Notes: generated by a model from the sequence alone, not told the origin. Positions 1,785-62,919 are shown, numbered from the stretch's first letter. The stretch is 64,000 nucleotides of DNA from Clostridia bacterium (GCA_036677445.1 JAVBWI010000026.1:271-64270), one strand, 5' to 3'. Numbers and translations: made by a program.

Positions 1785-2258
1785 ATGGCAGAGGTCAGGC
1801 TCACGCCGGAGGGCATCGCGAAATACGAGGAGCATCTGGAATATTTAAAGACCACTCGCAGGATGGAGATTGCCGAGCAGATCAAAATTGCGCGGTCATT
1901 TGGCGATCTTAGCGAAAACGCGGAGTACGACGCCGCCAAAAATGAACAGGCCAAGAATGAGTATGACATCGTTCAGCTTGAAAACATGTTGCGCAGTGCC
2001 GTTATCATCGATGAGGATTCGCTGGATACGGAAACTGTGAATGTCGGTGCTGTCGTGACCCTGCACAACGAAGAAGCAGCAGTGGATATGACCTATCACA
2101 TTGTGGGCTCCGCCGAAGCTGACCCGATGGAAGGGCGCATCTCCAACGAATCCCCCGTGGGTATGGCGATACTCGGCCATAAGGCCGGTGACGTAGTTGA
2201 AGTACAAACACCCGGCGGCTCCATACATTTGCGCATACTCGAGATCAAGAAGCAGTGA
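1785..2258 (+). CDS. greA: transcription elongation factor GreA
   Basis: ATG at 1785 follows AGGAGG (1772-1777). The product [22 protein letters not shown]... has the GreA coiled-coil N-domain and C-terminal globular domain. The track start at 1749 has no RBS. Confidence 0.9.
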
Positions 2259-2281
2259 CCCCCGCAAGAGAGGAATCGGAT

Positions 2282-3799
2282 ATGGATAACCAACAGACCC
2301 CCGCACCCCCTGAGCCGCAGCAGGAGCTGACTGAGCAGGAGCTTAGCGAGCTCCTGCAGATAAGACGGGACAAGCTTGCCGCGCTGCAAGCCGCGGGTAA
2401 AGACCCTTTTGAGGTAATGACATTTGATCAGACCCACCACAGCCAGGATATTGTGGATGGGTTTGAGGCACTCGAAGGCCAGACCGTCCGCATCGCCGGG
2501 CGCATGATGTCTAAAAGGATCATGGGCAAGGCCAGCTTTGCACATATACTCGACGGCAAGGGTACCGTTCAGGCGTACATCCGCAGGGATGATGTCGGCG
2601 AGGATGCTTATGCTGATTTTAAGGCATTGGATATAGGCGACATACTGGGCATCGAAGGCACGGTATTTAAGACCCGCACAGGCGAGATTTCCGTACACGC
2701 GCAAAGCGTCTCACTCTTGAGCAAGTCCCTGCGTCCGCTGCCGGAAAAGTTCCACGGCCTGAAGGATTCCGAGCTTCGTTATCGGCAGCGGTATGTGGAT
2801 CTGATCATGAACCCAGAAGTGCGCGAAACGTTTGTCAAGCGCAGCCGCATTATATCGCAGATACGCCGCAGGCTGGATGAGCAGGGCTTCCTCGAAGTGG
2901 AGACGCCCGTGCTCAACACCATACCCGGCGGCGCAAACGCGCGCCCCTTCGTTACGCACCATAACACGCTGGATATCGACCTGTACCTGCGCATCGCGAC
3001 CGAGCTTCCGCTCAAGGAATGCATCGTGGGCGGCCTTGAGCGCGTATATGAGATCGGCCGTATCTTCCGCAACGAGGGCATGGATATCAAGCACAACCCG
3101 GAGTTCACCACGCTGGAGCTGTATCAGGCGTATACGGATTATAACGGCATGATGGCGCTGGTGGAGGATTTGATCGCCCATTGCGCGAAAAGCGTGCTTG
3201 GCGATACCCGTATCGTCTATCAGGGCATCGAGATAGATCTGACGCCTCCGTTTGCCCGTATGACCATGAACGAGGCCGTAAAGCAGTTTACCGGCGCGGA
3301 TTTCTTCGCGTGCCAAACGGATGAAGAAGCGCGCGCGCTGGCATGTACACTGGGCCTGGAATTTGCGGATAAAACGATTACGCGCGGCAAGCTGCTCAAC
3401 GAAGCCTTCGAGGCATTTGTGGAAGAAAAGCTGATACAGCCCACTTTCATACTCGATTATCCTGTGGAGGTTTCGCCGCTTACCAAGCGCAAGCCGGGCA
3501 CGCCGTATGTGACGGAGCGTTTTGAGCTGTTCATAGGTACAAGGGAATATGCCAATGCGTATTCCGAACTTAACGACCCGGTCGACCAGCGCGGCCGGTT
3601 TATGCAGCAGATTTCCGAGCGTGAAAAGGGCGACGATGAGGCGATGATGATAGACGAGGATTTCTGCCTCTCGTTGGAATACGGCATGCCGCCCACCGGC
3701 GGTATCGGCGTGGGCATTGACCGGCTGGTGATGCTGCTGACGGATTCGTATTCGATACGCGACGTGTTGCTGTTCCCTACAATGAAGCCAAGACGTTGA
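2282..3799 (+). CDS. lysS: lysine--tRNA ligase (class II)
   Basis: ATG at 2282 follows GAGAGG. It has an OB-fold N-domain and class II motifs ([14 protein letters not shown]). The track's GTG start at 2255 overlaps the greA stop and is less likely. Confidence 0.93.
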
Positions 3800-3975
3800 A
3801 CGAGGCCTGGACGCGAAAGCAATGTGTTATACGCAGTTGTCCTTATAATGAAGCCAAGACGTTGAACGAGGCCTGGACGCGAAAGAAAATGTGTTATACG
3901 CAGTTGTCCTTATAATGAAGCCGAGACGTTAAATGCGTTAAAACGCAGACGTGAAGCAAATGTGTTACATGCATG
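3781..3975. repeat. tandem repeat (66-67 nt, about 2.9 copies) beginning inside the lysS 3' end
   Basis: Copy 1 is 3781-3846 and copy 2 is 3847-3913; they are near-identical, with one extra nt in copy 2. Copy 3, from 3914, has diverged. Each copy starts with AATGAAGCC(A/G)AGACGTT(G/A)A, which is the last five lysS codons plus the stop. Confidence 0.85.
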
Positions 3976-4071: not shown

Positions 4072-4992
4072 ATGAAAAAAACGCTTTCCATATTGCTCGT
4101 GATTGTTTTCATGCTCTCGGCTGTGGCTTGTGCCAAGAACGAAGAGCCTGCCGGCACGATTGACTTTGATTCCGACCCATCCGCAAGCGTCCAGCCGGGT
4201 GACCCCACGGGTACGCAGTCCGGAACTACTCCGGGCGGCTCGACGGTATCCAATGCGCCGGACTCTACGGTACCGGGTAGTACGGTACCGGGCGCTTCCG
4301 TTTCTCCGGGCGCTTCGGTTTCCCCGGGCGCTTCGGTTTCCCCGGGCGCATCCACTTCGCCTACGCCGGGCAGCACAGGCGCGCCAAAGAGCTACAGCGA
4401 GGCCAAAGCCATCAATTCGGATGTCATAGGGTGGATCAAGGTGCCCGGAACCAACATCGACTATCCTATTCTATATGACGATCCTTCGGATGGCGTCTGG
4501 TTCTATAACGACCACGACATTTATAAGAAAAGCACCGGTAATCCCGGCGCCGGCTGCATCTATACGTACTACAATGTGCTTACGCGCAATGTTATCGTAA
4601 CCGGCCATAACATGCGTCAGTCCGGCACCATGCTCCACGAACTGCATAAATTGCAGGACAACAAGTCGTCGCTCAAGACGAAAGCCAACCGTACCTTCAG
4701 CATACGGCTGTTCGGTTTTACGAAGTGGGAAGTGTTCGCGCTCTACGAAACCAAGGACAGCGAACCGTCCAGTACCATTAAGTACAATATCAAGCACCTG
4801 AGTTCCTCCGACAACTCCAACAAGAAGGAGATCGAGGAATGGATCGCCAAGCAGAAGAGCCGTTCGGAGATCGATTTGGGCGTGAGCGTTTCGGCGGACG
4901 ATTTCCTGATGACCATCATTACCTGCGGCGACAATTACGATTACAGCGAAGCGCAGTCCCGCCTGTACTACTTCCTCAGGGCTGTTGAGTAA
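4072..4992 (+). CDS. class B sortase-like protein with lipoprotein signal peptide
   Basis: Lipobox LSAVAC after the signal peptide, then a Pro/Gly/Ser/Thr-rich linker. The C-terminal domain carries SrtB-type motifs: GWIKVPGTNIDYPI, TGHNM..G.M, a TC catalytic Cys (IITCGD) and a downstream Arg. The ATG follows GAAGTGAAGG. Confidence 0.7.
   Translation: MKKTLSILLVIVFMLSAVACAKNEEPAGTIDFDSDPSASVQPGDPTGTQSGTTPGGSTVSNAPDSTVPGSTVPGASVSPGASVSPGASVSPGASTSPTPGSTGAPKSYSEAKAINSDVIGWIKVPGTNIDYPILYDDPSDGVWFYNDHDIYKKSTGNPGAGCIYTYYNVLTRNVIVTGHNMRQSGTMLHELHKLQDNKSSLKTKANRTFSIRLFGFTKWEVFALYETKDSEPSSTIKYNIKHLSSSDNSNKKEIEEWIAKQKSRSEIDLGVSVSADDFLMTIITCGDNYDYSEAQSRLYYFLRAVE
4288..4349 (+). repeat. in-frame 18-nt tandem repeat (about 3.4 copies) encoding PGASVS
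   Basis: CCGGGCGCTTC(C/G)GTTTC(T/C) is repeated head to tail inside the linker of the sortase-like gene. Confidence 0.85.
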
Positions 4993-5012: not shown

Positions 5013-5291
5013 CGCGCTGCCCCAGCATATGGGGCAGCGCGCTGTATATATCGAAAAAGTGGAAGTATCCACTTTTTCGAGGCTCACCGAACAGGTTGTC
5101 GCTCGGTTTCCTGCTTACGCAGGAAAGCTGTCGCGTCAACTTGCGCTCTAAGGTGTCATTTTGCATTGCGCATGTCGATGCAAAATGACGGATTGGAAGC
5201 CTCAAGTTATACAAACAAATTGTCTCTTCACCGTCTGTAGGCTTTTTTACAGCTTGAATGCGTTGTCCCGTTATATGAGGCAGCGCGCTGT
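5013..5291. repeat. multi-hairpin intergenic insert flanked by two diverged copies of a terminator hairpin
   Basis: The hairpin CGCGCTGCCCC-AGCATAT-GGGGCAGCGCG (5013-5041) recurs at 5259-5291 (26/33 identical; 18/19 over the 3' half). Three independent stem-loops lie between the copies: 5052-5079, 5107-5126 and 5155-5189. Confidence 0.7.
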
Positions 5292-5417: not shown

Positions 5418-6500
5418 ATGAAAAAGCAATGGATTGCCCTATTCCTGTGTGCGCTGCTGGTGTTTGCAGTTGGATGCAGCGCACCAAAAAGTAACCAAGG
5501 CGCCCGTACCGAAGCGGCGATGCCTGCCCCTGTGGAGGCGCCCGCGGCCGAAGCGCCTGCGGAGTATGCGCAGGATTCCCAGTCAGTCAAAGGTGAGGAA
5601 AGCGGCTGGAGCGGCGGTGCGGGAAACGCGGCCGGCTCCGCACCGGACCAGGATTATGGCGGGCATAAAGTCATCAAGAACGCCGGGTTAGGATTGGAGA
5701 CGCGGGAATTCGACGCGGATCTCGCGTACATCAAGCAGAAGGTCATGGATATGGGCGGCTATATCTCCAACTCCTACGTCAGAGGCAGGAAACCCGAGAA
5801 CTACAATGACACCGGCCGCTATGCGAGCATTTCCATCCGCATCCCGCAGGAGCGTATGGAAGCGTTCCTGGCCGACGCGCGCGGCATCGCGACCGTGACT
5901 TATGAGAACAGCAGCGGCGAAGACATTACTTCTTCCTATTATGATACGGAATCGCGCCTGCAGATTTACGAGACCCAGCGCGAGCGCATCCTTGCGTTGC
6001 TCGCGAAAGCGGAAACCATGGAGGATATCATTTCGCTTGAGACGGAGCTTTCCCGCATCACCTATGAGATCGAGAGCCTGACTACGCAGCTCAAGCGTTG
6101 GGACGACCTGGTGGATTTCGCAACGGTTACCGTGGATCTGACCGAAATTCCGCCCGCCGTGGCTGTTGCCAGCAACGACGACATCGGCACGCGAATCAAC
6201 GAAGGCCTGGCGAGCACGTTGAGCGGCATGGCTGTGTTCTTTGAGAACCTGCTTGTGTTCCTGATCGCGGCTTCGCCCGTTCTGATACTGCTGGCTATTA
6301 TATTGGTTGTGGTGCTGCTCATATTAAGGGCGCGCCGCAAAAAACAAGCGAAGTTGATTGAGCAGGGCATACTGCCCGAGAAAAAGCGCTATCAGGCGTA
6401 TCAACCCCCGCAGCCCAACCAAGGCGGATACGGCACGCAGCCCCTGCCGCCGGTAACTCCCTCGCAGCCCCCCAAAGGACCGGAGCAACCCAAAGAATAA
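5418..6500 (+). CDS. DUF4349-like lipoprotein with C-terminal TM helix and Pro-rich tail
   Basis: ATG at 5418 follows GGGAGGA. Lipobox FAVGCS. The core resembles DUF4349, with a coiled region followed by a TM segment (LLVFLIAASPVLILLAIILVVVLLIL). Confidence 0.75.
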   Translation: MKKQWIALFLCALLVFAVGCSAPKSNQGARTEAAMPAPVEAPAAEAPAEYAQDSQSVKGEESGWSGGAGNAAGSAPDQDYGGHKVIKNAGLGLETREFDADLAYIKQKVMDMGGYISNSYVRGRKPENYNDTGRYASISIRIPQERMEAFLADARGIATVTYENSSGEDITSSYYDTESRLQIYETQRERILALLAKAETMEDIISLETELSRITYEIESLTTQLKRWDDLVDFATVTVDLTEIPPAVAVASNDDIGTRINEGLASTLSGMAVFFENLLVFLIAASPVLILLAIILVVVLLILRARRKKQAKLIEQGILPEKKRYQAYQPPQPNQGGYGTQPLPPVTPSQPPKGPEQPKE

Positions 6501-6519: not shown

Positions 6520-6766
6520 AAACGGCCCGCAGGCATGATCTGCGGGCCATGGCCGCTGACAAAGTCCATAGGACTTTGTCAGCGGATTTTCTGTAGGTTG
6601 AAATGCCGCTTTAGGTTGAAATGCCGCTTATGGCGGCACTCGCCGATTTGACGCACAAAAACGCTGCGCTGCCAGATCGGATTGAAATAGTGGGGAATTG
6701 AGATTCCCCACACCCCAGGAGGGTTTGCCAGTATTCTAAACGGCTCGCAGGCATGATCTGCGGGCC
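6520..6766. repeat. family-A multi-hairpin insert (copy 1) bracketed by a 29-nt direct duplication of a bidirectional terminator
   Basis: The direct repeats 6520-6548 and 6738-6766 are 28/29 identical. The interior (6549-6737) contains a perfect 15-bp stem (6553-6585), an 18-nt internal tandem duplication (6595-6630) and a 9-bp stem (6690-6711). It is homologous in inverted orientation to 25346-25524. Confidence 0.8.
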
Positions 6767-6774
6767 GTTTTAAG

Positions 6775-7752
6775 TCATTTTTCCGTCTCTATAGAGTATT
6801 TTGCGCCATCCATCGTGATATGGATCGTACCGGATACATCCGTCCGGTAAAACGGAATATCGGCGCTTTTGAGCGCCTGCACGACCTCCTCGTGCGGGTG
6901 GCCGTATTCGTTGTTCGCGCCAAGGCTGGCGACGGCAGCCTCCGGGCCGATCGCGTCGAGAAACGCCGCAGAGGTGGAGGAGTTGGAGCCGTGATGCCCC
7001 ACCTTAAGCACTGTGGAGCGGAAGTAAGATGCAGGCAGCTGTTTGAGCGCGGCTTTTTCCGCATAGCGTTCCGCATCGCCGGTAAGCAATATCGAGGTGT
7101 CGCCAAAACGCACGCGGCAAACGACGCTTGCGTCATTCAGGTCGTCGTATGTAACATCTGCAAGGGGAGAAAGTATGCGTATTTCCACCTGATCGTCCCA
7201 CTCGATGAAGGCGTTCTCGCCTCCGACAGCCTTTTTGACGGAAATGTTCTGCGCGTCCAGCGCGTCGATGAGATTTTCGAACATTTTTGTCTCATTCACG
7301 GCATCCGGCATATAGTATGTGCCGACCTCGTAGTTGGAGAGCACCTGCCGCATGCCGCCGATATGATCTGCGTGCGGGTGGGTGCCGATCACGACATCCA
7401 GCATGGTCACACCCTGTTCCTTCAGAAAGCCGTCGATACGTTCGTACATATCGCTGGTACTGGCATCCACCAGCATAGTTTTGCCGGAAGGGCTGCGTAA
7501 AAATATGCTGTCGCCCTGCCCGACATCCAGTACATATACGTCAAGCATGCCTTCCGCTGCGGAGGGCCGCCCAGCGGAGGGCTGCTCGGCGGGGGACTCC
7601 GTAAGGCCTGCGGCCGGGCTCCCCTCAAACAAGCTGAAAATGCCTAAGGAACCTTCCATGAAACAGTCGATCGCAAACAGAAGACCCAATACCATGAAAA
7701 GCGCGATCAGTGAGCGGACATGTTTGTTTAGACGCTTTTTGGATTTAGCCAT
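6775..7752 (-). CDS. membrane-anchored MBL-fold hydrolase, ComEC/Rec2 C-terminal-domain type
   Basis: ATG at 7752 follows AGGTGAG. N-terminal TM helix, then metallo-beta-lactamase motifs (LDVGQGDS, THPHADHIGG, GHHGS). Confidence 0.8.
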   Translation of the reverse strand: MAKSKKRLNKHVRSLIALFMVLGLLFAIDCFMEGSLGIFSLFEGSPAAGLTESPAEQPSAGRPSAAEGMLDVYVLDVGQGDSIFLRSPSGKTMLVDASTSDMYERIDGFLKEQGVTMLDVVIGTHPHADHIGGMRQVLSNYEVGTYYMPDAVNETKMFENLIDALDAQNISVKKAVGGENAFIEWDDQVEIRILSPLADVTYDDLNDASVVCRVRFGDTSILLTGDAERYAEKAALKQLPASYFRSTVLKVGHHGSNSSTSAAFLDAIGPEAAVASLGANNEYGHPHEEVVQALKSADIPFYRTDVSGTIHITMDGAKYSIETEK

Positions 7753-9659: not shown

Positions 9660-9736
9660 GGGGATGTAGCCCAGCAGGTTAGAGCGCTTCGCTCACATCG
9701 AAGAGGTCGGGGGTTCGAGCCCCTCCATCCCCACCA
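9660..9736 (+). tRNA. tRNA-Val (anticodon CAC), CCA encoded
   Basis: Cloverleaf built by hand. Acceptor GGGGATG/CATCCCC, anticodon stem CTTCG/CGAAG with loop CTCACAT, T-arm GGGGG-TTCGAGC-CCCTC. There is one C-A mismatch in the D-stem. A TTGCAT-17-TAATAT promoter-like match lies at 9616-9644. Confidence 0.85.
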
Positions 9737-10080: not shown

Positions 10081-11220
10081 TCAATTCTCCACGCCGATCT
10101 GAACGCTCACCCCATTGACTTCCACGCCCGCATCCGCAGGAATCAGGATATACCTGCTTCCGTCGATCACCCGCGTTTCGATGAGGTCGCTCCGCTCCGG
10201 ATCAACCTTGATCACCACATCCGGTGTGCGGATCACAAACTGCTTTTTGTCGATGACGTTGGCGGGCGGAAGCTGCGCATCCGAACCAAACTGCGCGTCA
10301 AAGGCAGTGACAAAGGCCTGAACATGCGCTTCGGATACGCCGCATTCCTGCAGCACCGCGCCGATTTCCTTTTGCGATAGCAGCAACTGTTCTTGTTCCT
10401 TGCTTTCCTTGTGTCGGTCTATCATTTCGCTCAGATGCTCATGGACAGCCTGCACCACCGTGAGGCTGCAATCCTCCTTGAGCGTTTCTGTCAGTATAGC
10501 TTGGAAAGTCTCTTTCTGTGCCGCGGCGGGCATGGGCGGCTCTACATGGAATACCGTATCGATAAATTCCTGGTGGTTCTCCACGGCGTTCTTCATATAG
10601 TACAACGCGCCGTAAATGTTGGCGGCCCTGTCATCGAAGGCCGGAAATAGGAAGCCCAGTTCCGGAGCGGATACCACATAGCCCTGCGAGGTGGTGTGGA
10701 AGCGGTTCTCCGCCAGTTGATAACTTAGTTCCGCCGGGGTTTGTTTCACCGGGCATATGCTGCAAAGGATGTAGCTGAATTCCTCGCCGGAAGCCTCCTT
10801 CTGGATCTCGCCGTCCTTGGCTCTGTAGGGCACGGTATATACGTCGTGAGTCAGCAGGATGAGATAGTTGCTTTCCATTTTAAGCGCTTCAATGATCCGC
10901 TGATAGAAAGTTTGCAGCATATCCGAATTCTTTAGCCCGGTCTGACGGAGCATGGACAGAAGCTTATGCTCGTCGCTATCCATCACCTGTTTGGCGCTGA
11001 ACTCTATATTGACGAGATTCTTTCCGAGGGAACCAGACAAAGACTTCTTCAAAAGGGAAAGAAAGCGTTCTGACTCCTCCTGCGGGATGCTGGAAAGGAA
11101 TTCTTCAAACGTAGCGACAATTTTTCTGTCCTCATTGACATAACAACCGTATACGTTACCGATCATGCTTTTATCCGGCCTGAAACGGCGCCGGATCTCC
11201 CGTATCTCTTTCTCGTTCAT
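10081..11220 (-). CDS. DUF4317 family protein
   Basis: Start at MNEKEIREIRRRFRPDK (11220) follows GTGAGG. The N-terminal motif and the length (379 aa) match my recollection of clostridial DUF4317 proteins. Confidence 0.72.
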   Translation of the reverse strand: MNEKEIREIRRRFRPDKSMIGNVYGCYVNEDRKIVATFEEFLSSIPQEESERFLSLLKKSLSGSLGKNLVNIEFSAKQVMDSDEHKLLSMLRQTGLKNSDMLQTFYQRIIEALKMESNYLILLTHDVYTVPYRAKDGEIQKEASGEEFSYILCSICPVKQTPAELSYQLAENRFHTTSQGYVVSAPELGFLFPAFDDRAANIYGALYYMKNAVENHQEFIDTVFHVEPPMPAAAQKETFQAILTETLKEDCSLTVVQAVHEHLSEMIDRHKESKEQEQLLLSQKEIGAVLQECGVSEAHVQAFVTAFDAQFGSDAQLPPANVIDKKQFVIRTPDVVIKVDPERSDLIETRVIDGSRYILIPADAGVEVNGVSVQIGVEN

Positions 11221-11378
11221 GCCTAACCTCACTGTTCATGATATAAGGAAGTGCCGCCACAAAAAGCGGCAGCAGTATGAATTATATCATGCCGGAAGCG
11301 ATGTTGTCTTGCTTTGGTTTTCAGGATAGAATAAGAGCGTGCTCACGCCGAGTAGAGTTTTGGGAGGGGGCGGAAAGG

Positions 11379-13245: not shown

Positions 13246-14940
13246 CTAAACACACGTTTTTCTCCGCTTGTGGATGTTGAGTACCAGGAACAATCCTCCG
13301 GCGCATGCTGACAGCGCAAGCAACCAGATCGCGGGCGTAAAGTCCTGCCCGGTGGACGGTAACTCCGCCCTGGAGACCATGACGTCAACATAAGCCGACT
13401 GCCGCCCGACCGTATAGGTCACACGCGCCATGCCCTCTTTCAGGCCGGTAAACGTCTCCCCGCTGCGGGAAAAATGTTCCTCATCATACTGCCAGGTTCC
13501 ACCCGGGATATTCGGAGTTATTGTGACGCGCCCTCCTGTGTAGATTTTTCCGTCCGAGGGCGACATGGATAATACAAGAGCAGGTGACGACGTCTGCTCG
13601 GATGTAGGCGGAGTCTGCGTCGGCTCCGGCCCTATCCACTTCGCGTACAGCGTCATATTGGCCATAACGATATCGTTTGCGAGATCCCAGGGGAGTGTAC
13701 ATTCCTTGTCCCTGTACCAGCCGCCGAAGGTATGTCCAGCGCGGGTGGGCGGTTCGGGCGGCATTTCAATAACCCCGCCCAATTCCACGTTCATGCTGGC
13801 GGGTGTGGCCTCCGTATCCCCGTCGTTTTTATCGAAGATAACGGTACAGGGGGAGAAGAACGCCATAAGGGGATAATACCCTGAACCGGGGGTTATTGGA
13901 TACTCTGCCTCGGTAAAACCTCCCCCCGGGCCCATCCAGCCGACGAATGTTGCGCCGTCATTGGGCGTTGCCACGGCATACCCCCCTTCGTCGACGGACA
14001 ATCCGACAGTTCCGTTTCCATTAGACCATATCTCTATATTAGACCCGTTTATACTCGCTTTGATCAGGGTCAGCCGGTTGTCATTGCAGTAAAGAAACTG
14101 CAATGCCGTATTCGCGCTTACGTCCAACTCCGTCAGGTCGTTGGCGGAGCAGTCAAGCTCAAGCAGTGCAGGATTTGCGCCGACATCCAGCGTCGTCAGG
14201 TCGTTGTGGGAACAATCGAGCGCTTCCAAAGCCGTCAAGGCCCTTACGTCCAACGAAGCCAGCAGGTTGTGTTCGCAGTTCAGGTAAACCAAAGCCGTAT
14301 TTGCGCCTACATTCAGGGCAGATAGTTGGTTGTCACCACAAGAAAGAGAGGTCAGCGCCGTATTTGCACCTACATCCAGCGACGTCAACTGATTGTTGTC
14401 GCAGTACAAATAAACCAAAGCTGTACTTGCGCTTACATCCAGTGACGTCAGTTGGTTGGTATGGCAGTGCAGTTCAGTCAGCGCCGCATCCGCGCTGATG
14501 TCCAGCGATGTTAACTGATTATTGCTGCAGTCCAATCGAGTCAAAACCGGATTATCGCTTGCATCCAGGGAAACAAGCCCGCATCCGTCACAGAGCAGTT
14601 CAGTCAAGGCTGAAAACCCGCTGACATCCAGTGAACCGGCAAGGCCGAGGCCGCGCCACGAACCGCTGGCATTGACCGTCATGACGCGCTTCGGGGTGTC
14701 GTTGTTCCATTCAACCCCTATCCACGTCGCGGGATCGGCTGGGTTATAGGCTGTTATATTAATGCGCTGCCCGTTTGTCTGGCCCGCTATCTCCGAGGGC
14801 TGGTTAAGAAACGCCTGCAGCTTATAGAAATCATTATCATCATATTCGGTGCCGCCTATATCCACCGCGTATGCCGTAATGGACAGCGTCCCGAACACCA
14901 TGATGATTGATAAAATGAATACTAACAGCTTCCGTTTCAT
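13246..14940 (-). CDS. LPXTG-anchored leucine-rich-repeat surface protein
   Basis: Signal peptide, then about ten 22-aa LRR units (LTSLDVSANTAL..L.C..NQL). A Listeria-Bacteroides (Flg_new) repeat (GHTFGGWYRDKECTLPW) follows. The C-terminus has LPSTG, a hydrophobic helix and a KRRK tail. Confidence 0.88.
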   Translation of the reverse strand: MKRKLLVFILSIIMVFGTLSITAYAVDIGGTEYDDNDFYKLQAFLNQPSEIAGQTNGQRINITAYNPADPATWIGVEWNNDTPKRVMTVNASGSWRGLGLAGSLDVSGFSALTELLCDGCGLVSLDASDNPVLTRLDCSNNQLTSLDISADAALTELHCHTNQLTSLDVSASTALVYLYCDNNQLTSLDVGANTALTSLSCGDNQLSALNVGANTALVYLNCEHNLLASLDVRALTALEALDCSHNDLTTLDVGANPALLELDCSANDLTELDVSANTALQFLYCNDNRLTLIKASINGSNIEIWSNGNGTVGLSVDEGGYAVATPNDGATFVGWMGPGGGFTEAEYPITPGSGYYPLMAFFSPCTVIFDKNDGDTEATPASMNVELGGVIEMPPEPPTRAGHTFGGWYRDKECTLPWDLANDIVMANMTLYAKWIGPEPTQTPPTSEQTSSPALVLSMSPSDGKIYTGGRVTITPNIPGGTWQYDEEHFSRSGETFTGLKEGMARVTYTVGRQSAYVDVMVSRAELPSTGQDFTPAIWLLALSACAGGLFLVLNIHKRRKTCV

Positions 14941-24369: not shown

Positions 24370-25128
24370 ATGGTTGGGATTTATTTGAGCGGCACGGGCA
24401 ACACCAAGCGTTGCACGCAGAGACTTGTTCATCTTCTTGATGAACAGGCTCAGACCCTTCCGATAGAGGAGGATAGAGCAGTTGCGGCTATTAAAGAGAA
24501 CGGAATAATCGTGCTGGCATACCCAGTTCAGTTTTCCAATGCGCCGGTGATGGTTCGAGATTTCATCAAAAATCATGCTGACCTTTGGCAAGATAAAAAG
24601 GTTCTCTGCGTGGCAACGATGGGCGCGTTCAGCGGCGACGGTACGGGCTGTACGGCAAGGCTGTTAAAAAAATACGGTGCGAAAATCATTGGCGGGTTGC
24701 ATATCCGTATGCCGGATTCGGTATGCGATGTGAAGTTGTTGAAGAAACCGTTGGAGAAAAACAAGCAGATTGTGTTGGCAGCGGATAAAAAGACTGAAGC
24801 TATTGCCGCCAGTATCAAGGCTGGCAAGTACCCAAAAGAAGGCTTGGGGTTCTTCCATCACATTACCGGGTTATTCGGACAGCGGCTTTGGTTTTATGGC
24901 AAAACGCTACATCATTCTGACCAGCTCAAAATCAGCGCCGCTTGCGTAGGTTGCGGCCAATGTGCAGAACTATGTCCGATGAAAAATATCACAATGCGTG
25001 ATAGAAAGCCCGTTCCCGGTAATCAGTGTACCATGTGCTACCGTTGTATCTGCCAATGCCCTCAAAAGGCAATTACGCTTCTTGGGAAACGGACACTGTT
25101 CCACTCCGGGCATGGTATATCAGGGTAA
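24370..25128 (+). CDS. EFR1-family ferredoxin (flavodoxin-like N-domain + 2x[4Fe-4S])
   Basis: N-terminus MVGIYLSGTGNTKRC (flavodoxin-like). C-terminus CVGCGQCAELCP and CTMCYRCICQCP cluster motifs. Confidence 0.8.
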   Translation: MVGIYLSGTGNTKRCTQRLVHLLDEQAQTLPIEEDRAVAAIKENGIIVLAYPVQFSNAPVMVRDFIKNHADLWQDKKVLCVATMGAFSGDGTGCTARLLKKYGAKIIGGLHIRMPDSVCDVKLLKKPLEKNKQIVLAADKKTEAIAASIKAGKYPKEGLGFFHHITGLFGQRLWFYGKTLHHSDQLKISAACVGCGQCAELCPMKNITMRDRKPVPGNQCTMCYRCICQCPQKAITLLGKRTLFHSGHGISG

Positions 25129-25323: not shown

Positions 25324-25546
25324 AAACCTCCAGAAGTTCTGGAGGTTCAGAGTATCGATAAACCCTCTCCATGGGGGTGTGGCGGAGTAGAATACCCCCA
25401 CTTTTAATCCGATTTGACATCGCAGCGTCTTTGTGCGTCAAATCGGCGGAAAAATGCCGCATGAGCGGCATTTTAACCCACCAAAAACCCATCGACAAAG
25501 TCCACAGGACTTTGTCGATGGTCTAAACATCCAGAAGTTCTGGAGG
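25324..25546. repeat. family-A multi-hairpin insert (copy 2, inverted) bracketed by a 22-nt direct duplication of a hairpin
   Basis: AAAC(C/A)TCCAGAAGTTCTGGAGG occurs at 25324-25345 and 25525-25546 (21/22 identical). The interior (25346-25524) is collinear with the reverse complement of 6549-6737 and includes a perfect 15-bp stem at 25489-25521. Confidence 0.8.
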
Positions 25547-25690: not shown

Positions 25691-25930
25691 TTATTGGTGA
25701 TTTCTTTCCTTATGCTGCCTCTTTTTTATAGGCGTTATGATCGCGCCGGTCAATAAACCCAGTACGCCACCATAGACGGCGGAAATATAAGGGTTGGACG
25801 TGATGGCACAAGTTCCGCTGGCACATCCGATAAAATGATAATACAGATACCCGCCCGCTGTACCAATAACCGTAAAGATTACCATGGGCAAGTATCGAAG
25901 CCATATTTTCTTTGCGATTTTACGCTCCAT
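25691..25930 (-). CDS. small membrane protein with CxxxxC motif (DUF6132-like)
   Basis: 79 aa from MERKIAKK, with two TM helices flanking GCASGTC. The upstream in-frame extension to 26179 has no RBS, so the start is uncertain. Confidence 0.55.
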   Translation of the reverse strand: MERKIAKKIWLRYLPMVIFTVIGTAGGYLYYHFIGCASGTCAITSNPYISAVYGGVLGLLTGAIITPIKKRQHKERNHQ

Positions 25931-26179
25931 GTTTTTCGCTTCTTTCCCGTTTGTTGTAGTATAGCCTTGATGGGAAGGCGTCACCGTGATTTTATCACCT
26001 TCGGCCGGGTAACGGCTGAATTGATCCAATTTTTGCGTCTGGCGCAAAACGCTTTTTGCCATTTTCTGATGAAATTCCGTTTTGTTCATTTTTGCTGACA
26101 AATATGCGGATTTTTCGGATTGCCCAGAAATTGTTATAACAATATGATAAAGAAAACAGATCAAAAGGAGTGTAGGCAA

Positions 26180-36303: not shown

Positions 36304-37101
36304 ATGCTTACCATAGGGGAATTCTCAGGCATCTGCCGGGTATCGGTCAAAACGCTGCGCTACTACGACCAGATCGGCCTGTTTAAGCCCGGCCGCGTAA
36401 ACGGGGAAAACGGCTACCGGTATTACGAAGTTCCGCAGCTTCGGGAGATACTGTTGATATCCAGGCTCAAGCAGTACCGGTTCTCCCTGCCGGAAATAGC
36501 GGCGATACTCGCTAAAAACGATGCCGAGTATCTCGCCGCGAGCATCCGGAGCAAGCAAGAGGAGATCGCCCGAGAGATCGCCGAGCAGCAAAGCGTCCTG
36601 CGCGCGATGAAACAGGATATCGAAAAAATTGAAAGGTGTGGAACATTTATGAATGAAGCTTATACCGTAAAAACGGTTACAATGCAGCCAAAAACAATTT
36701 GTACGCTCAGAAGGAAGATGGGAATCAAGGATTTTGGCGCGGCGTTCGGCGACCTTTGCGCCGGCCTGGGGAAGCGCGGCCTGAAACCGTGCGGGCCTTT
36801 CCTTTCCATCTATCACGATGAGGAATTCGACAGGGAATGTTCCGATATCGAGGTCGGCGTCGAGGTTGATTCGGGAAGCGGCGAGCATGTGCGCACGTTT
36901 GCCCCGGGACTGTGCTGCTTTGCGACGCACATTGGCCCTTACGACGATTTTTCGCAGTGCTATACGGCGCTGGCCGAGTGGATGGAAGGCGAAGGGTATA
37001 CCGTATCCGGTCCTCCCTTCGAGTTATACATTAAGGGATGCGAAAGCAACGTACTGCCAAGCGCGTATGTGACCGAAATCTATTTCCCCATCACCAGGTA
37101 A
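36304..37101 (+). CDS. MerR-family regulator with GyrI-like effector domain (BmrR-type)
   Basis: N-terminal MerR HTH (MLTIGEFSGICRVSVKTLRYYDQIGL), a coiled linker, and a GyrI-like C-domain. Confidence 0.85.
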   Translation: MLTIGEFSGICRVSVKTLRYYDQIGLFKPGRVNGENGYRYYEVPQLREILLISRLKQYRFSLPEIAAILAKNDAEYLAASIRSKQEEIAREIAEQQSVLRAMKQDIEKIERCGTFMNEAYTVKTVTMQPKTICTLRRKMGIKDFGAAFGDLCAGLGKRGLKPCGPFLSIYHDEEFDRECSDIEVGVEVDSGSGEHVRTFAPGLCCFATHIGPYDDFSQCYTALAEWMEGEGYTVSGPPFELYIKGCESNVLPSAYVTEIYFPITR

Positions 37102-37106
37102 ACAGG

Positions 37107-37135
37107 CAAGGGCCGGTCCGGTGGACCGGCCCTTG
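37107..37135 (+). terminator. stem-loop after the MerR gene
   Basis: 13-bp perfect stem CAAGGGCCGGTCC/GGACCGGCCCTTG with a 3-nt loop. No T-tract follows, so function as an intrinsic terminator is uncertain. Confidence 0.45.
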
Positions 37136-37142
37136 AGATTGT

Positions 37143-37300
37143 CAAAAAAGTGACTGCGTCACTTTTTTGAGCTTCACAGGAACCGTCTGCATCTTTAATG
37201 GCGGCGACGGCCCACAGGCCTAGTGTCCGAGGCGTCTCCCGCCGAGGACCGGCGGTTCCTGCAAGGGAAGCCTTGCGCCGCAAGGCTTTTCGCTCGCGCC
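37143..37300. repeat. hairpin / GC-rich modular intergenic repeat (family B related)
   Basis: Contains the A-tract/stem/T-tract hairpin CAAAAAAGTGAC-TGC-GTCACTTTTTTG (37143-37169) and the long-range pairing CAGGAACCG (37177-37185) / CGGTTCCTG (37253-37261). The 26-mer at 37204-37229 is shared with 16511-16536. Confidence 0.6.
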
Positions 37301-37556
37301 GCACATGTCGCCGCTCGCGAATGAAGCCTATTACGGTAGTAGTTTGCTAGCCATCAAAGACTTTCTTGACACTCTGAAGGGCGAACTACCCGATCGGCCC
37401 TTATTGCATGAATCAGGATGCCGTACATTGCGGTATTTCTTCCGCGAATCCCACGTATGGTATATGGAACACCATATACGTCTGCAACTGCGCGTAAAAT
37501 CATTTCAGAAACAGATCAAAAGGTCGCGGCGTAAATCCAACGTGAAGGAGAACGGC

Positions 37557-60200: not shown

Positions 60201-62919
60201 CACCGGCGATGAACTGACCGGCACGCTTGCGCGCGCCGCCGGGGAAAATGTGGGGAGCTATGCCATCGCGATGGGAACGCTAACGGCCGGCGGCAACTAT
60301 ACATTGTCGCTCTCGGGCAGCGTCAGCTTCGCCATCACCCCCAAGGCTGACGCCACATTTACCATTGCCGAAATTTCCCCGCGGACCTATACCGGCAGCG
60401 CTATTACGCCGGAGCCGCAGGTGAAGGACGGAAGCATCGTTTTAACAAAGAATGTGGACTTCACTTACGGTTACGGCAACAATACCAATGCCGGGGTTTC
60501 CGCCGCCGTCAGTATCACCGGCATCGGCAACTATGCGGGCAGCACCGGCTCCGCGATATTTACCATCAACAAGGCGATGCCCCCGCTGACGCTGACGGCC
60601 AACCCTGCGGCTACGCAGACACGACCCGGCAGCGTAACGCTTTCGGCGGCATTGCCATCTGACGCGACGGGAACTCTCACCTTCAGAGCAGGGACGGATA
60701 CCATTGCGGCCGTAACCCTGCCAATGAAAACAGCCGCCTTCACGCCGACAGGCATTGCCAACGCATACAGCTTCACCGTGGAATACAGCGGGGACAGCAA
60801 TTACGAGGGCAAAACCAGTACGGCGCTGGAATACGGTTTTATAAAATCCGATCAGGCGGCATTAAATACCACGGACGGCACGGTCAGCTTCGGCGACCCA
60901 TTGGATTTATCAACTTTGGTCAGCGGCGGCTCCGGCACGGGCGCGTTCAGCTTTGCCGTAACCGACGGTCCCGCCAACCTTGACGGCGTCACCCTGATTC
61001 CTACCGGCGTGGGCACAGTGAGTATTACGGTGACAAAGGCGGCTGATCATGACTATAACGAAAAGTCCGCCATTTTCACGGTAACGGTCATTCCCCGCGT
61101 GATCACCTTTACGGTCGCCTCTGTCCAACCGCAAACCTATACCGGCAGCGCCATCACCCCGGAACCGGAGGTGAAAGACGGTGACATATTCCTGACAGAG
61201 GGGATCGATTTCGCCTACGGTTACAGCGACAATACGAGCATCGGAGCTTTCGCTGCCGTCAATATTACCGGCATTGGCAACTACGCAGGCAGCACCGGCT
61301 CCACAACATTTACCATCGGCAAGGCTGCGCCGAACATTTTAACCCCTCCAGCTGTCAGCGGTACCATCTATGCCGGAACTGCGCTATCGAAAATCTTGCT
61401 GACAGGTGGTGAGGCCAGCGTCAGCGGGCACTTCGAGTGGGCGAATCCTTCGGCGGCCGCGGTACGCGGGGAAAATACTTTCGAGGCCCGCTTCGTGCCG
61501 GACGACACGGTGAATTATCTGGAAGTGGAAGGCATCAGCATTACTTTTACCGCAAAAAACCGTCCCGACGGCGACTCAACCCTCTTTGCAGCAAAGCCCA
61601 ACCAGCCCACCGCTGCCAGCGTAACCGCAGCCGCACAGATGACGAATGGCCGCGCAGCCCTGACCATTACCGGCAGCATAGTCAGGGCGGCCATCGATAA
61701 AGCGCTGGCGGACGCCAAAGCCGGAGGCAATGCCGCAAACGGCATCAGCGTAACTATTTCGGTGACAGCCACAGGCGCCACCGGCTTCACGCTTACCCTG
61801 GAACGGAATGCCCTGAACCGCCTGCTCAACGCAAGAGTAAAATCCTTCGGTGTTTCCGGCCTGCCGGTCAACTTGGGCTTTGATACGGAGGCCCTCAGGC
61901 AGATCCACACACAAAGCGGCGGCGATGTTGTCATCGCCGTCAAGCCTGCGGCGGTGACTGGCCTCTACAATGCCTATGATATCACCATCACTTCGACAAG
62001 GGCCAAAAAGGCGGTCGGCATTACCTCGCTGGGGAGGGGCAGCATCATACTAAGCATCTCTGCCGTTCCCGGCAGGAACGAGTCCGGCGGTTATCTATAC
62101 GGTGCCTATGTGAGCGCGGACAACAAAATTAACCGCATTGCGAATTCGGCCTACGATGCAAACAGCAAGCGCGTGATTTTGTCCATCAATCATTTCTCGG
62201 TATACGGCGTGGGCTACGCTGCCCCCAGCGCCGGATTTTTCGATATCGCAAAGCATTGGGCGAAGGACAGCATTGATTACGCGGTAGGCCGGGGGTTGCT
62301 TTCGGGAACTTCCGGGAGGGCATTCTCCCCCGATGCGGCCATCACCCGCGGAATACTGGCAACAGCCCTCGGCAGGCTCTCCGGCGCCGATGTGAGCGGC
62401 TACAAGGCCAGCAGCTTTCGTGATGTAAAAGCCGGAAGCGTTCTCCAACCTTACATTGAGTGGGCATACAGGGAAGGTATTATGCAGGGCGTCGGAAACA
62501 GCCAGTTCGCCCCTGACAGGGCTGTGACCCGCGAGGAAATCGCGGTTATCCTGCAAAATTACGCCAAGGCCACCGGCTACAAGTTGCCTGTGACCCGCGA
62601 AGCGGTCACTTTTGCGGACGCTTCCAACATCGGAAATTCCTGTAAAACGGCGGTAACGGCCATGCAGCAGGCGGGCGTCATGATGGGCCGAAGCGATAAC
62701 AGATTTCATCCCAAATCCAATGCCACCCGGGCGGAGGTTTCCGCCATGCTGCACCGGTATGTCAAGCTAGCCGTCGACCCCGCTACCGCGCAGGGCTGGG
62801 CGAGAAACGATGACGGCGGGTACATGTACTACCAAAACGGCGCCGCCGTAACAGGCTCAACGACCATTGACGGCGTGAAATATTACTTCGACAGCATTGG
62901 CGTTTTGCAGGCCGCCTAG
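57286..62919 (+). CDS. giant cell-surface protein: signal peptide, GLUG repeats, FN3 x4, MBG/Ig-like modules, 3 SLH domains, C-terminal cell-wall-binding repeat
   Basis: ATG at 57286 follows GGAGGGA, with signal peptide ...APVLAEAE. GLUG-type GGIAG repeats lie at about 57840-58680. FN3 units carry the repeated VSVGMAMTYTFTGLTNG (58933, 59461). MBG-like KVYGQPDP is present. SLH motifs lie at about 62230-62770, and the tail reads GW..DGGYMYYQNGAAVTG..IDGVKYYFD. Confidence 0.9.
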   Translation: MNNNKPSRKLIAIALSIVMVLASAPVLAEAETVPLGANGEITAFSPLAEEVSAQQVPTGTALSELTLPGRIFVTVGGRQTDIAVAWQPEPQYDGNTIGEYIFTPALPEGCSLADGVEPPQISVTVVGPMLRTTAGAMAAATPDYAWYDANKAAPRFEIGSPAQLKGLADIVNGNHGAAFAFTGREVSLTADIDLSGYENWTPIGANYNTFSGTFTGNSHTISGLTINAPAQSGVGLFGLLVGSVSDLYLSNVNITGYQNAGGIAGEVWGSIRHCAVIGGTVSGYENTGGIAGKVSNNGSLLTSCFTTCGVRATGISPYSAGGVAGRVEYGGVLSDCYATGSVKPGEGLNIQALGGVVGSIYGGSIRNCFAVGEVTGTTRIGGVAGGLSGATTLENCAALNIRVAGDPNAGSYGGVNTGRVAGYVSGAQVINDIAFSGLILVNGGGNNANGSDRSSAQIKAEGFFETSGFSAPAWQSETEKLPILTGFPEGLQSGELPAHIGSPTPSAPQTLTAEPNDGSAKLSWAAPGSSGASDISRYEVRKNNEGWISVGMAMTYTFTGLTNGTIYTFEVRAVNSYGNGAAASVQRVPVSSGNIAAIPGDRSVVLNWVTPPSLIGRITDYWVRYDDASWKYPDENYLHTFFGLANGVNYTFEIWGIGMNGSTQGVLFSASIVAMPVGKPMEPANLIAVPGGGQIALSWEEVYSDEGSPVLRYEVSQDGGVNWVSVGMAMTYTFTGLTNGMAYPLQVRAVNAIGTGNAAAISATPRQPPAMISTGSQSFPYGSGGAFTVSASGTPPIAYALSGQPGGISMNESTGSVTVERTVPAGVYPFTVTAANGSPPDAVQDFSLTITSRTPQLSDLQYTAPSNRTYDGASTGIGPVTDKNAIGLSCTVYYQGISGTTYPRSQTPPKNAGQYEVIAAIAGNTNINAAELSLGTYRILSKSITVTPTAGQNKVYGQPDPPLQYTLSDALCTGDELTGTLARAAGENVGSYAIAMGTLTAGGNYTLSLSGSVSFAITPKADATFTIAEISPRTYTGSAITPEPQVKDGSIVLTKNVDFTYGYGNNTNAGVSAAVSITGIGNYAGSTGSAIFTINKAMPPLTLTANPAATQTRPGSVTLSAALPSDATGTLTFRAGTDTIAAVTLPMKTAAFTPTGIANAYSFTVEYSGDSNYEGKTSTALEYGFIKSDQAALNTTDGTVSFGDPLDLSTLVSGGSGTGAFSFAVTDGPANLDGVTLIPTGVGTVSITVTKAADHDYNEKSAIFTVTVIPRVITFTVASVQPQTYTGSAITPEPEVKDGDIFLTEGIDFAYGYSDNTSIGAFAAVNITGIGNYAGSTGSTTFTIGKAAPNILTPPAVSGTIYAGTALSKILLTGGEASVSGHFEWANPSAAAVRGENTFEARFVPDDTVNYLEVEGISITFTAKNRPDGDSTLFAAKPNQPTAASVTAAAQMTNGRAALTITGSIVRAAIDKALADAKAGGNAANGISVTISVTATGATGFTLTLERNALNRLLNARVKSFGVSGLPVNLGFDTEALRQIHTQSGGDVVIAVKPAAVTGLYNAYDITITSTRAKKAVGITSLGRGSIILSISAVPGRNESGGYLYGAYVSADNKINRIANSAYDANSKRVILSINHFSVYGVGYAAPSAGFFDIAKHWAKDSIDYAVGRGLLSGTSGRAFSPDAAITRGILATALGRLSGADVSGYKASSFRDVKAGSVLQPYIEWAYREGIMQGVGNSQFAPDRAVTREEIAVILQNYAKATGYKLPVTREAVTFADASNIGNSCKTAVTAMQQAGVMMGRSDNRFHPKSNATRAEVSAMLHRYVKLAVDPATAQGWARNDDGGYMYYQNGAAVTGSTTIDGVKYYFDSIGVLQAA

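Follow-up and report, generated by a model that had tools for sequence, protein, structure and literature searches.

A small hairpin-rich element between duplicated terminator stem-loops in an uncultured Clostridia lineage, a probable product of structure-dependent transposition

The window analyzed in this study (the whole 64-kb stretch of clostridial DNA, with positions counted from its first letter) carries two copies of a small element, hereafter called E, both of them located between convergent genes. Each copy is bracketed by direct repeats that contain a hairpin, named T1 for the repeats surrounding copy 1 (near 6.5 kb) and T2 for those surrounding copy 2 (near 25 kb). The strand of copy 2 that is read on the plus strand of the window defines E+. 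The genes and features of the two loci are as follows:

5418-6500, plus strand: DUF4349 gene, on one side of E copy 1
6520-6548: T1 on the DUF4349-gene side, direct repeat made of AAAC followed by GGCCCGCAG-GCATGAT-CTGCGGGCC
6549-6737, minus strand (E+ lies on the minus strand): E copy 1, 189 bp
6553-6585: hairpin H4 of copy 1
6738-6766: T1 on the ComEC-like-gene side, direct repeat with one C>T change in the stem
6775-7752, minus strand: ComEC-like metallo-beta-lactamase-fold gene, on the other side of E copy 1
24370-25128, plus strand: flavodoxin/4Fe-4S-like gene, on one side of E copy 2
25324-25345: T2, left copy, direct repeat made of AAA followed by the stem-loop CCTCCAGAA-G-TTCTGGAGG
25346-25524, plus strand: E copy 2, interior of 179 bp, described by its sequence, its folds and its alignment to copy 1
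25362-25378: hairpin H0 of copy 2
25379-25401: hairpin H1 of copy 2
25409-25446: hairpin H2 of copy 2
25451-25474: hairpin H3 of copy 2
25489-25521, minus strand: hairpin H4 of copy 2, with a 15-bp stem and a 3-nt loop, followed by GTTTTTGG on the minus (E-) strand
25525-25546: T2, right copy, direct repeat AAACATCCAGAAGTTCTGGAGG, with a stem weakened by one C>A change
25691-26089, minus strand: DUF6132 gene (identified by Pfam), on the other side of E copy 2

The first-pass annotation of this DNA had described the interior 25346-25524 as collinear with the reverse complement of 6549-6737 over a series of shared blocks. All these blocks were recovered in a MAFFT alignment of the two copies, in which the mean column identity (flanks included) is 78%. 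The 27-nt core GCAGCGTYTTTGTGCGTCAAATCGGCG and the hairpin GACAAAGTCCNNNGGACTTTGTC (GACAAAGTCC...GGACTTTGTC) are each found exactly twice in the 64-kb window, for an expectation of zero in shuffled sequences. An 18-nt sequence is duplicated in tandem within copy 1 (6591-6626). The 3′ arm of H4 is also the right terminal repeat of E, and its 15-bp stem reads CCATCGACAAAGTCC-ACA-GGACTTTGTCGATGG in copy 2 and CCGCTGACAAAGTCC-TAT-GGACTTTGTCAGCGG in copy 1; the exchange of three adjacent base pairs initially noticed between the two copies (ATC/GAT versus GCT/AGC) is exact. Compared with shuffles, the bracketed units have fold z-scores of -11.1 and -8.9. Both copies contain only short chance ORFs, the search of their six-frame translations against 5.8 billion proteins gave no match at E<=10, and their sizes are below the limit of about 300 bp for MITEs.

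An independent repeat finder retrieved the brackets first seen around copy 2, at 25324-25345 and 25525-25546. The T2 repeats are 22 nt long with 21/22 identical positions (95%), and the T1 repeats are 29 nt long with 28/29 identical positions (97%). We calculate that chance alone would give about 1e-4 repeats of 22 nt (no more than one mismatch, within about 300 nt) per 64 kb. As had been proposed, T1 and T2 are unrelated in sequence. The outermost bases of the repeats (3-4 nt: AAA for copy 2 and GTTT for copy 1) are just as readily interpreted as the termini of E (TTYAGA.../...TCTAAA). If these terminal TTY/RAA bases are assigned to the element, the duplication is essentially limited to the stem-loop, with a target of 19 nt for copy 2, 25-26 nt for copy 1 and 25-27 nt for a different element, X, found in a sister strain (see below). 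The whole stem-loop was duplicated in these three recent events, and duplication length appears to follow hairpin size. As judged from the relatives described below, the bracketing repeats are target-site duplications. Relative to the T-tract of the hairpin, E+ has the same direction in copy 1 and the opposite one in copy 2.

Both targets have the features of intrinsic terminators. T2 was called by a terminator scan as the minus-strand terminator of the DUF6132 gene (25348-25324, with the tail CTTTGTATCC), its native T-tract being kept; the terminator predicted for this gene on the minus strand is CCTCCAGAACTTCTGGAGG followed by TTTCTTTGT. T1 lies in an AAAAC...GTTTT frame and starts a few bases past the stop codon of the ComEC-like gene. 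Since the bracketing hairpins appear to be native terminators of the neighboring genes that were duplicated upon insertion, E is first of all a mobile element.

Relatives of the window strain were traced via the flanking proteins in protein and contig indexes, the collection of species representatives containing no close relative. Two loci (L014 and L015, from Logan samples SRR28867354 and DRR784986) encode a DUF4349 protein that is 86% identical to that of the window. The same convergent genes are separated there by about 53 nt that include one hairpin (aaaacGGCCCGC-agagaa-GCGGGCCgtttt) and no element, the order being the DUF4349 stop codon, aaaacGGCCCGCagagaaGCGGGCCgtttt and the convergent ComEC-like gene; they therefore provide an empty T1 site. 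A different situation is found in a sister strain, defined by proteins 98% identical to those of the window (samples SRR27162510 and SRR27176485). Its T1 hairpin is located beside the ComEC-like gene in one locus (L006), with a sequence unlike E after GTTT, and also beside the DUF4349 gene in two others (L012/L013), again followed by non-E sequence. These two non-E sequences correspond by homology to the two ends of element X of the window. One and the same T1 terminator is consequently empty in a relative, occupied by E in the window strain and occupied by X in the sister strain, and the hairpin is duplicated with identical boundaries in the two occupied sites. Between the T1 copies of the sister strain, two base pairs differ, in both cases with full compensation (GGCCCGCAG/CTGCGGGCC versus GTCCCACAG/CTGTGGGAC). 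An empty T2 site was also sought at 25 kb: the sister strain diverges within the 3′ end of the flavodoxin-like gene, its contig ending in another repeat, and a further relative diverges before the hairpin. Taken together, these sequences demonstrate that E recently entered two terminator hairpins of unlike sequence and that the stem-loop was duplicated each time.

E is not the only element of this type in the window, which contains two others:

5014-5291, plus strand: element Y, with an interior at 5046-5259 and a 32-nt hairpin repeat on each side, the two repeats being 81% identical
36304-37101: MerR-family gene (identified by Pfam), whose terminator (37110-37132) directly precedes X
37133-37378, plus strand: element X, a related non-autonomous element of 246 bp

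The terminal inverted repeats of X, TTGAGATTGTCAAAAAAGTG and TTCAGAGTGTCAAGAAAGTC (the latter being the reverse complement of the 3′ end), match with a score of 12 that was reached in 0/2000 shuffles; for the X of the sister strain, 8/2000 shuffles reach the score of its terminal repeats. The hairpin bracketing Y is GCGCTGCCCCA...TGGGGCAGCGC(GCTGT); Y, which is partly present in L014/L015, appears to be an older and less clean case. The left ends of Y and X also match with a score of 12 (0/2000 shuffles), the figure for the other match between Y and X ends being 20/2000. The two ends of E copy 2, TTCAGAGTATCGATAAAC at 5′ and ...GTTTGTCGATGGTCT(AAA) at 3′, form an imperfect inverted repeat; the match of TTCAGAGTATCGATAAAC with TTTAGACCATCGACAAAG has a score of 9 and is marginal (35/2000 shuffles), and the terminal inverted repeat of copy 1 does not reach significance (712/2000). 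Between the left end of E copy 2 and the right end of X, the match has a score of 11 (2/2000 shuffles). The E copies start with TTCAGA or TTTAGA, and the reverse complements of their 3′ ends are AGACCA and ATGGCC. Because of their related termini, E, X and Y look like members of one superfamily. A hairpin, GGGGTGTGGGG, is common to E and other elements. Outside the window, scanning for a motif internal to X revealed 25 loci in seven metagenome-assembled genomes (labeled Bacillota, Oscillospiraceae or Feifaniaceae), and the X-type relatives carry a near-invariant core of 45 nt. Diverged duplications of a hairpin flank the X copies of relatives at three loci (L036, L038 and L039), and the flanking duplication is absent at four other X loci. 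The best reading of these data is that E belongs to a mosaic superfamily, probably comprising E, X, Y and others, of an uncultured Clostridia lineage.

We propose, with a probability of about 0.6, that E is a non-coding and non-autonomous MITE-like element that inserts into terminator hairpins by structure-dependent transposition, the inferred target being a cruciform. A transposase supplied in trans would read the terminator palindrome by its shape, most plausibly that of an extruded cruciform; extrusion of palindromes of 19-25 nt as cruciforms in vivo is an assumption of this model. Recognition of shape would explain both the unlike sequences of the targets and a duplication length that follows the length of the hairpin. 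Gap repair would then copy the whole stem-loop to both sides of the element, whose ends (TTY.../...RAA) would restore short T and A runs beside each hairpin copy. The interior of E would in addition bring terminator-like hairpins, H4 acting on one strand, H1 on the other and H3 on both. Termination or insulation between the convergent genes would probably be kept or even reinforced, which would make the insertions tolerable. Our best guess for the enzyme is a DDE transposase resembling those of the IS1182 family.

The closest known behavior is that of IS1272 and TnSha1, which fits far better than that of IS1202. The terminator stem-loops that these two staphylococcal elements of the IS1182 family enter, in either orientation, are unrelated in sequence, and the same hairpin is struck repeatedly; their target structures are typically 21-38 nt long, located just 3′ of genes and devoid of any sequence consensus (PMC4923244; PMC5678879). 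Similarly, E targets terminator stem-loops of 19 and 25 nt in both orientations, and T1 was hit by both E and X. However, with IS1272 and TnSha1 the hairpin is lost in whole or in part and no target duplication is generated (PMC4923244; PMC5678879), whereas the whole stem-loop is duplicated at the E sites. Such an outcome corresponds to a hypothetical pathway considered by the authors who studied IS1272: in their model of a cruciform target, joining at the 5′ feet is predicted to duplicate the whole stem-loop (PMC5678879, Figure 13, pathway b). E also differs from IS1272 and TnSha1 by its size (about 180 bp) and by its lack of coding sequence; no matching full-length IS was found in the loci scanned, and no IS1182-type gene was detected in about 340 kb of loci (tblastn with the C-terminal domain of ISKpn6). 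In ISfinder, the direct repeats of the IS1182 family range from 0 to 60 bp.

A bolder proposal, which we consider rather unlikely, is that E, X and Y represent an undescribed mode of transposition. A structure-specific enzyme, not necessarily related to IS1182, would attack the 5′ feet of the cruciform, thereby duplicating terminators of any sequence and length and delivering a multi-terminator cassette. Mobilization of E itself would require the conserved five-hairpin fold, in the form of single-stranded DNA or RNA, and the 45-nt core of the X type would be a recognition or catalytic module.

Because of the long duplications, the IS1202 family was considered first. This family, which occurs in Firmicutes, shows unusually long target duplications, fixed at 27-28 bp in one subgroup (15-17 or 5-6 bp are also found in the family), and its ends start with TGT or TRT (bioRxiv 10.1101/2022.12.17.520857). 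An IS1202-family MITE was rejected since neither the ends nor the repeat lengths fit: the duplication made by E varies from 19 to 29 nt with hairpin size and the ends of E are TTYAGA.../ATGGCC.... Among known bacterial MITEs, the Correia elements of Neisseria, bcr1 of the Bacillus cereus group and ERIC share with E a small size, an absence of coding capacity, an intergenic location, inverted ends (at most marginal in E) and a strong predicted structure. For some such MITEs, compensatory changes, termination of transcription and a presence that differs between strains are known. However, Correia, bcr1 and ERIC generate short duplications of fixed length (TA, TTTAT, etc.) at targets defined by their sequence, whereas the target duplication of E is variable, defined by structure and equal to the whole terminator hairpin.

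The search was extended to other genomes. Exact searches gave 0 matches in genome contigs (with the core GCGTNTTTGTGCGTCAAATCGG) and 0 in viral contigs (with a 17-mer of the core and the H4 hairpin); a 20-mer gave two matches in metagenome contigs, both chance matches inside coding sequence, and no match to E or X was found in plasmid records (blastn, distant mode). Besides the two copies of the 64-kb window, the only ones known in this genome, homologues of E were detected in three other genomes, among the loci retrieved with the X motif, a weaker match being found in a further locus:

L031, 7150-7318: full-length E homologue (nhmmer E = 2e-44; covariance model, 170 bits)
L033, 1745-1908: full-length E homologue (nhmmer E = 2e-41; covariance model, 151 bits)
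L034: truncated E homologue at the edge of the locus
L037: weaker, sub-threshold E match, with a right end that is of X type by eye

Because of the empty site in L014/L015 and of these homologues in other genomes, E can be regarded as a member of a dispersed family and not as a simple segmental duplication, in agreement with what the first-pass annotation had suspected. In L033, E is located between convergent genes, beside a terminator-like hairpin found 3′ of a small gene (rpmH by eye). In L031, H4 begins 3 nt past a stop codon and is the sole hairpin there, making this homologue the only case compatible with a replacement of the hairpin. Neither L031 nor L033 shows a recognizable flanking duplication around its E homologue.

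All four full E copies, two from the window and two from other uncultured Clostridia genomes, fold into the same H0-H4 series. Covariation was scored on the alignment of these four sequences, using helices H0, H1, H2 and H4 (H3 was omitted since it is misaligned). Bases are paired in 91.9% of the cells, and 12 of the 37 pairs are changed on both sides, compared with 5.9±1.5 in shuffles, none of which (0/500) reaches the observed number; registers slid by one to three columns give only 0-3 such pairs. H2 accounts for five of the compensatory pairs and H4 for six (of its 14 pairs). The five-hairpin layout of E is therefore conserved across genera by compensation, a pattern that, with four sequences and palindromic DNA, fits RNA and DNA alike. 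The covariation seen between the two window copies, from which selection on the long stem had been claimed, thus holds in this larger alignment, and the 12/37 compensatory pairs obtained with two added homologues strengthen the claim. However, the 3-bp difference of H4 is partly mirrored in the left (5′) terminal repeat (ATCGAT-AAAC in copy 2 versus ACTGGC-AAAC in copy 1) and may therefore reflect co-evolution of the terminal repeats or self-templating of the palindrome no less than selection for an RNA stem. This calls for caution if the proposed mechanism is true: in palindromic DNA, changes that look compensatory may stem from either of these two processes, besides RNA selection.

The hairpins of E had also been compared to bidirectional intrinsic terminators. 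This description suits H3 well, as it is bordered by A and T runs (by eye), whereas H4 and H1 each fit one strand: the terminator scan retains H4 on the E-minus strand for the two window copies, and H1 in L033. No E hairpin passes a simple terminator scan of L031. A conserved promoter was not found, the promoter-like matches varying in position and strand between the E copies. A scan of the window with Rfam 15 detected only a tRNA; around both E copies, only sub-threshold chance matches were obtained, at gathering or permissive thresholds, and the related elements of 19 loci gave nothing.

A reading of E as above all a structured RNA with a function (a small RNA gene, or a 3′-UTR, terminator or insulator module under host selection), whose mobility would be incidental or ancient, is unlikely. 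The strong covariation across genera and the fold z-scores of -9 to -11 would be in line with such a function, as would the conservation of short single-stranded linkers (e.g., TTTTAACC and AAAACCC), the slight excess of G-U pairs over A-C mismatches on the E+ strand (8 versus 5 cells) and the position of H4 in L031, where it is apparently the sole terminator of the upstream gene. However, besides the lack of a matching Rfam family and of a conserved promoter, the orientation of E relative to the neighboring genes is not fixed, and the near-perfect duplications, the polymorphism between strains and the empty site show recent insertion. It should be added that a role as structured RNA is compatible with E being a mobile element.

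Among the 10 nearby or suspicious ORFs of the window that were scanned, Pfam revealed neither transposase nor integrase, and no RAYT, TnpA, TnpB or cas gene was found. These observations bear on the resemblance of E to REP/BIME sequences, which are mosaics of palindromic modules located at gene 3′ ends or between convergent genes and for which roles in termination and mRNA stability have been proposed. E is likewise a mosaic of palindromic modules between convergent genes. However, REPs are short units present in hundreds of copies, linked to RAYT, preceded by a conserved 5′ tetranucleotide and inserted without target duplication, whereas E is a defined unit of five hairpins lying between duplicated host terminators, with no visible GTAG-type foot. 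A REP/BIME-like or IS200/IS605-type element, moved as single-stranded DNA by an HUH (Y1) transposase that recognizes subterminal hairpins such as H4, would account for the hairpin-rich mosaic architecture at gene 3′ ends, for modules common to several families (e.g., the GGGGTGTGGGG hairpin) and for a conserved subterminal hairpin with a variable foot. We nevertheless hold this to be quite improbable, since HUH single-strand transposition proceeds without target duplication whereas duplications of 19-29 nt are found here, since E was inserted in both orientations relative to the T-tract of the hairpin and since, by eye, there is neither a conserved flanking tetranucleotide target nor a GTAG-type foot; the limited set of ORFs scanned, devoid of RAYT, TnpA and TnpB, points in the same direction.

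Some of the data could also evoke an origin without any transposon, by template switching at palindromes or by breakage of a cruciform followed by a repair that captures filler DNA copied from elsewhere in the genome or from another locus. Indeed, the compensatory double changes between the T1 copies of the sister strain are what self-templating would be expected to produce, and resolution of a cruciform followed by fill-in might also duplicate a whole palindrome. Such an origin is very improbable given that a single defined unit with constant ends lies at unrelated hairpins, that E, X and Y have related termini, that family members are present in other genera and that two different family members occupy one hairpin with the same boundaries. 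Other recombinases act on palindromes or on folded DNA. With integration of the Cas1 type, the palindromic repeat beside the insert is duplicated as a whole, and the duplicated targets are here palindromes of CRISPR-repeat-like size; a Cas1/casposase-type integrase or an integron-type tyrosine recombinase is nonetheless scarcely credible, as duplication length varies with the hairpin without any ruler, the insert is a defined element of 180-250 bp with inverted ends, the 10 ORFs scanned include no cas or integrase gene and integron exchange does not duplicate its site.

Three further candidates were rejected: (i) an IS256-type end, since the motif GAYAAAGTCC, which resembles what we take to be the IS256 tip, sits 9 nt inside the element and its flanks are inverted, not direct; (ii) a Campbell-type integration via hairpin homology, since the element would need to carry the hairpin of each target beforehand; and (iii) a group II intron of class C or an IStron, since E is far too small, the intron ends are absent and those elements insert without duplication.

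If structure-dependent transposition of E into terminator hairpins is true, the sites described here would be natural evidence of transposition guided by shape, in which the whole stem-loop is duplicated instead of deleted; the duplication that is only a hypothetical pathway for IS1272 would then have been seen in nature. It would also explain how small elements can settle in the short intervals of convergent gene pairs while termination is preserved, and would reveal a source of duplication and turnover of terminators in compact genomes. The E/X-type elements could be mined as portable insulator cassettes. These elements also break short-read assemblies, a situation that was met repeatedly in this study.

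Inside X, the 246-bp element related to the non-coding, hairpin-rich element E, lies a core of some 45 nt, GCGACGGCCCGCAGGCCTAGTGTCCGA(A)GGCGTCTCCCGCCGAGGAC, that hardly varies among the copies compared. The present comparison identified 27 distinct copies of this core, distributed over seven metagenome-assembled genomes and the window. The elements that carry them are of at least three kinds (X-type, GGGGTGTGGGGAAAC-hairpin type and tRNA-linked type). A search of Rfam gave no match to the core; it may serve for recognition or represent a small RNA, either catalytic or structured. The positions of the core and of two repeats in the window are as follows (L-numbers designate loci fetched from other genomes or Logan contigs):

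37193-37260, core of about 45 nt, inside X (+); also at L007 8431-8524 and 8639-8732, and in L016-L040
9717-9736 and 9899-9918, repeat pair of a tRNA 3′ end, adjoining the tRNA at 9660-9733
6591-6626, 18-nt tandem duplication (CTGTAGGTTGAAATGCCG / CTTTAGGTTGAAATGCCG), in E copy 1 (-), just after its hairpin H3

In several cases the duplicated hairpins that bracket these elements have diverged. In the sister strain with 98%-identical proteins, the two copies of T1 (the terminator hairpin between the DUF4349 and ComEC-like genes) were compared using L012/L013 (around 1403-1434), L006 2091-2119 and window 6520-6548. They differ at two base pairs, both fully compensatory (G-C to T-A and G-C to A-T), and are about 16% divergent, compared to about 2% for the genome. 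Copies of X in L036, L038 and L039 are also flanked by diverged hairpin duplicates with compensatory differences. Taken together, these differences suggest either a fast structure-preserving evolution or a self-templating of the palindromes. In the window, no exact copy of the terminator located to the left of X (37110-37132, GGGCCGGTCCGGTGGACCGGCCC) is present on its right, where GGGCGAACTACCCGATCGGCCC is found instead (37379-37400); these two sequences agree only at their outer ends (4 and 7-8 bases), their centres being unrelated. Likewise, the outer stem is conserved and the centre replaced in L036.

A different arrangement is seen at the tRNA at 9660-9733. Its 3′-terminal 20 nt, GAGCCCCTCCATCCCCACCA, recur 182 nt downstream, and the two copies enclose a 162-bp stretch containing the module GGCTCGAAGCCGCG..AAATCGCTCC..GGAGCGATTT..AGCGGCCG. 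This module was found twice in GCA_964440115.1 (L007 8519-8575 and 8786-8842), beside an apparently orthologous tRNA and likewise with partial copies of the tRNA 3′ end. A related string, GGGAGGCAAGCGGAGGAGCCCCTCCATCC, constitutes the end of a contig of the 98% strain, downstream of the flavodoxin-like gene (L042). No integrase gene adjoins the 162-bp stretch; the nearby 383-aa ORF (10081-11232) encodes a DUF4317 protein.

The third duplicated hairpin lies at 5014-5291, where two copies of 32 nt that are 81% identical flank Y, a hairpin-rich element of 214 bp located upstream of the DUF4349 gene. Since the left half of Y is preserved in the 86% relative (L014/L015), with no more than a trace of the second copy of the hairpin, the insertion of Y is considered as older and partly eroded. 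Same-strain Logan contigs break inside Y, suggesting that it is multi-copy. One Logan contig (L010) ends at the tandem duplication of E copy 1. In L034, a truncated E-like copy (H1 and the 5′ arm of H2; 1-123, the locus being cut at position 1) adjoins the end of an X copy, which suggests that members of the family were inserted there nested or side by side.

Other repeats were detected in the window. Two overlapping pairs of direct repeats (46-49 nt, 94-96% identical, spacing of 66-67 nt) at 3774-3933, read as about three tandem units, start at the 3′ end of ORF 2255-3799. This ORF corresponds to a gene with a tRNA-synt_2 domain called in L011, a contig that terminates at these repeats. Three repeats of coding regions look like ordinary features of repeat proteins:

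4288-4341, three 18-nt units, in ORF 4072-4992
14087-14634, units with a period of 63 nt, in the gene of a leucine-rich-repeat/Flg_new protein
60379-61325, 197-nt pair, 750 nt apart, inside a 1882-aa ORF
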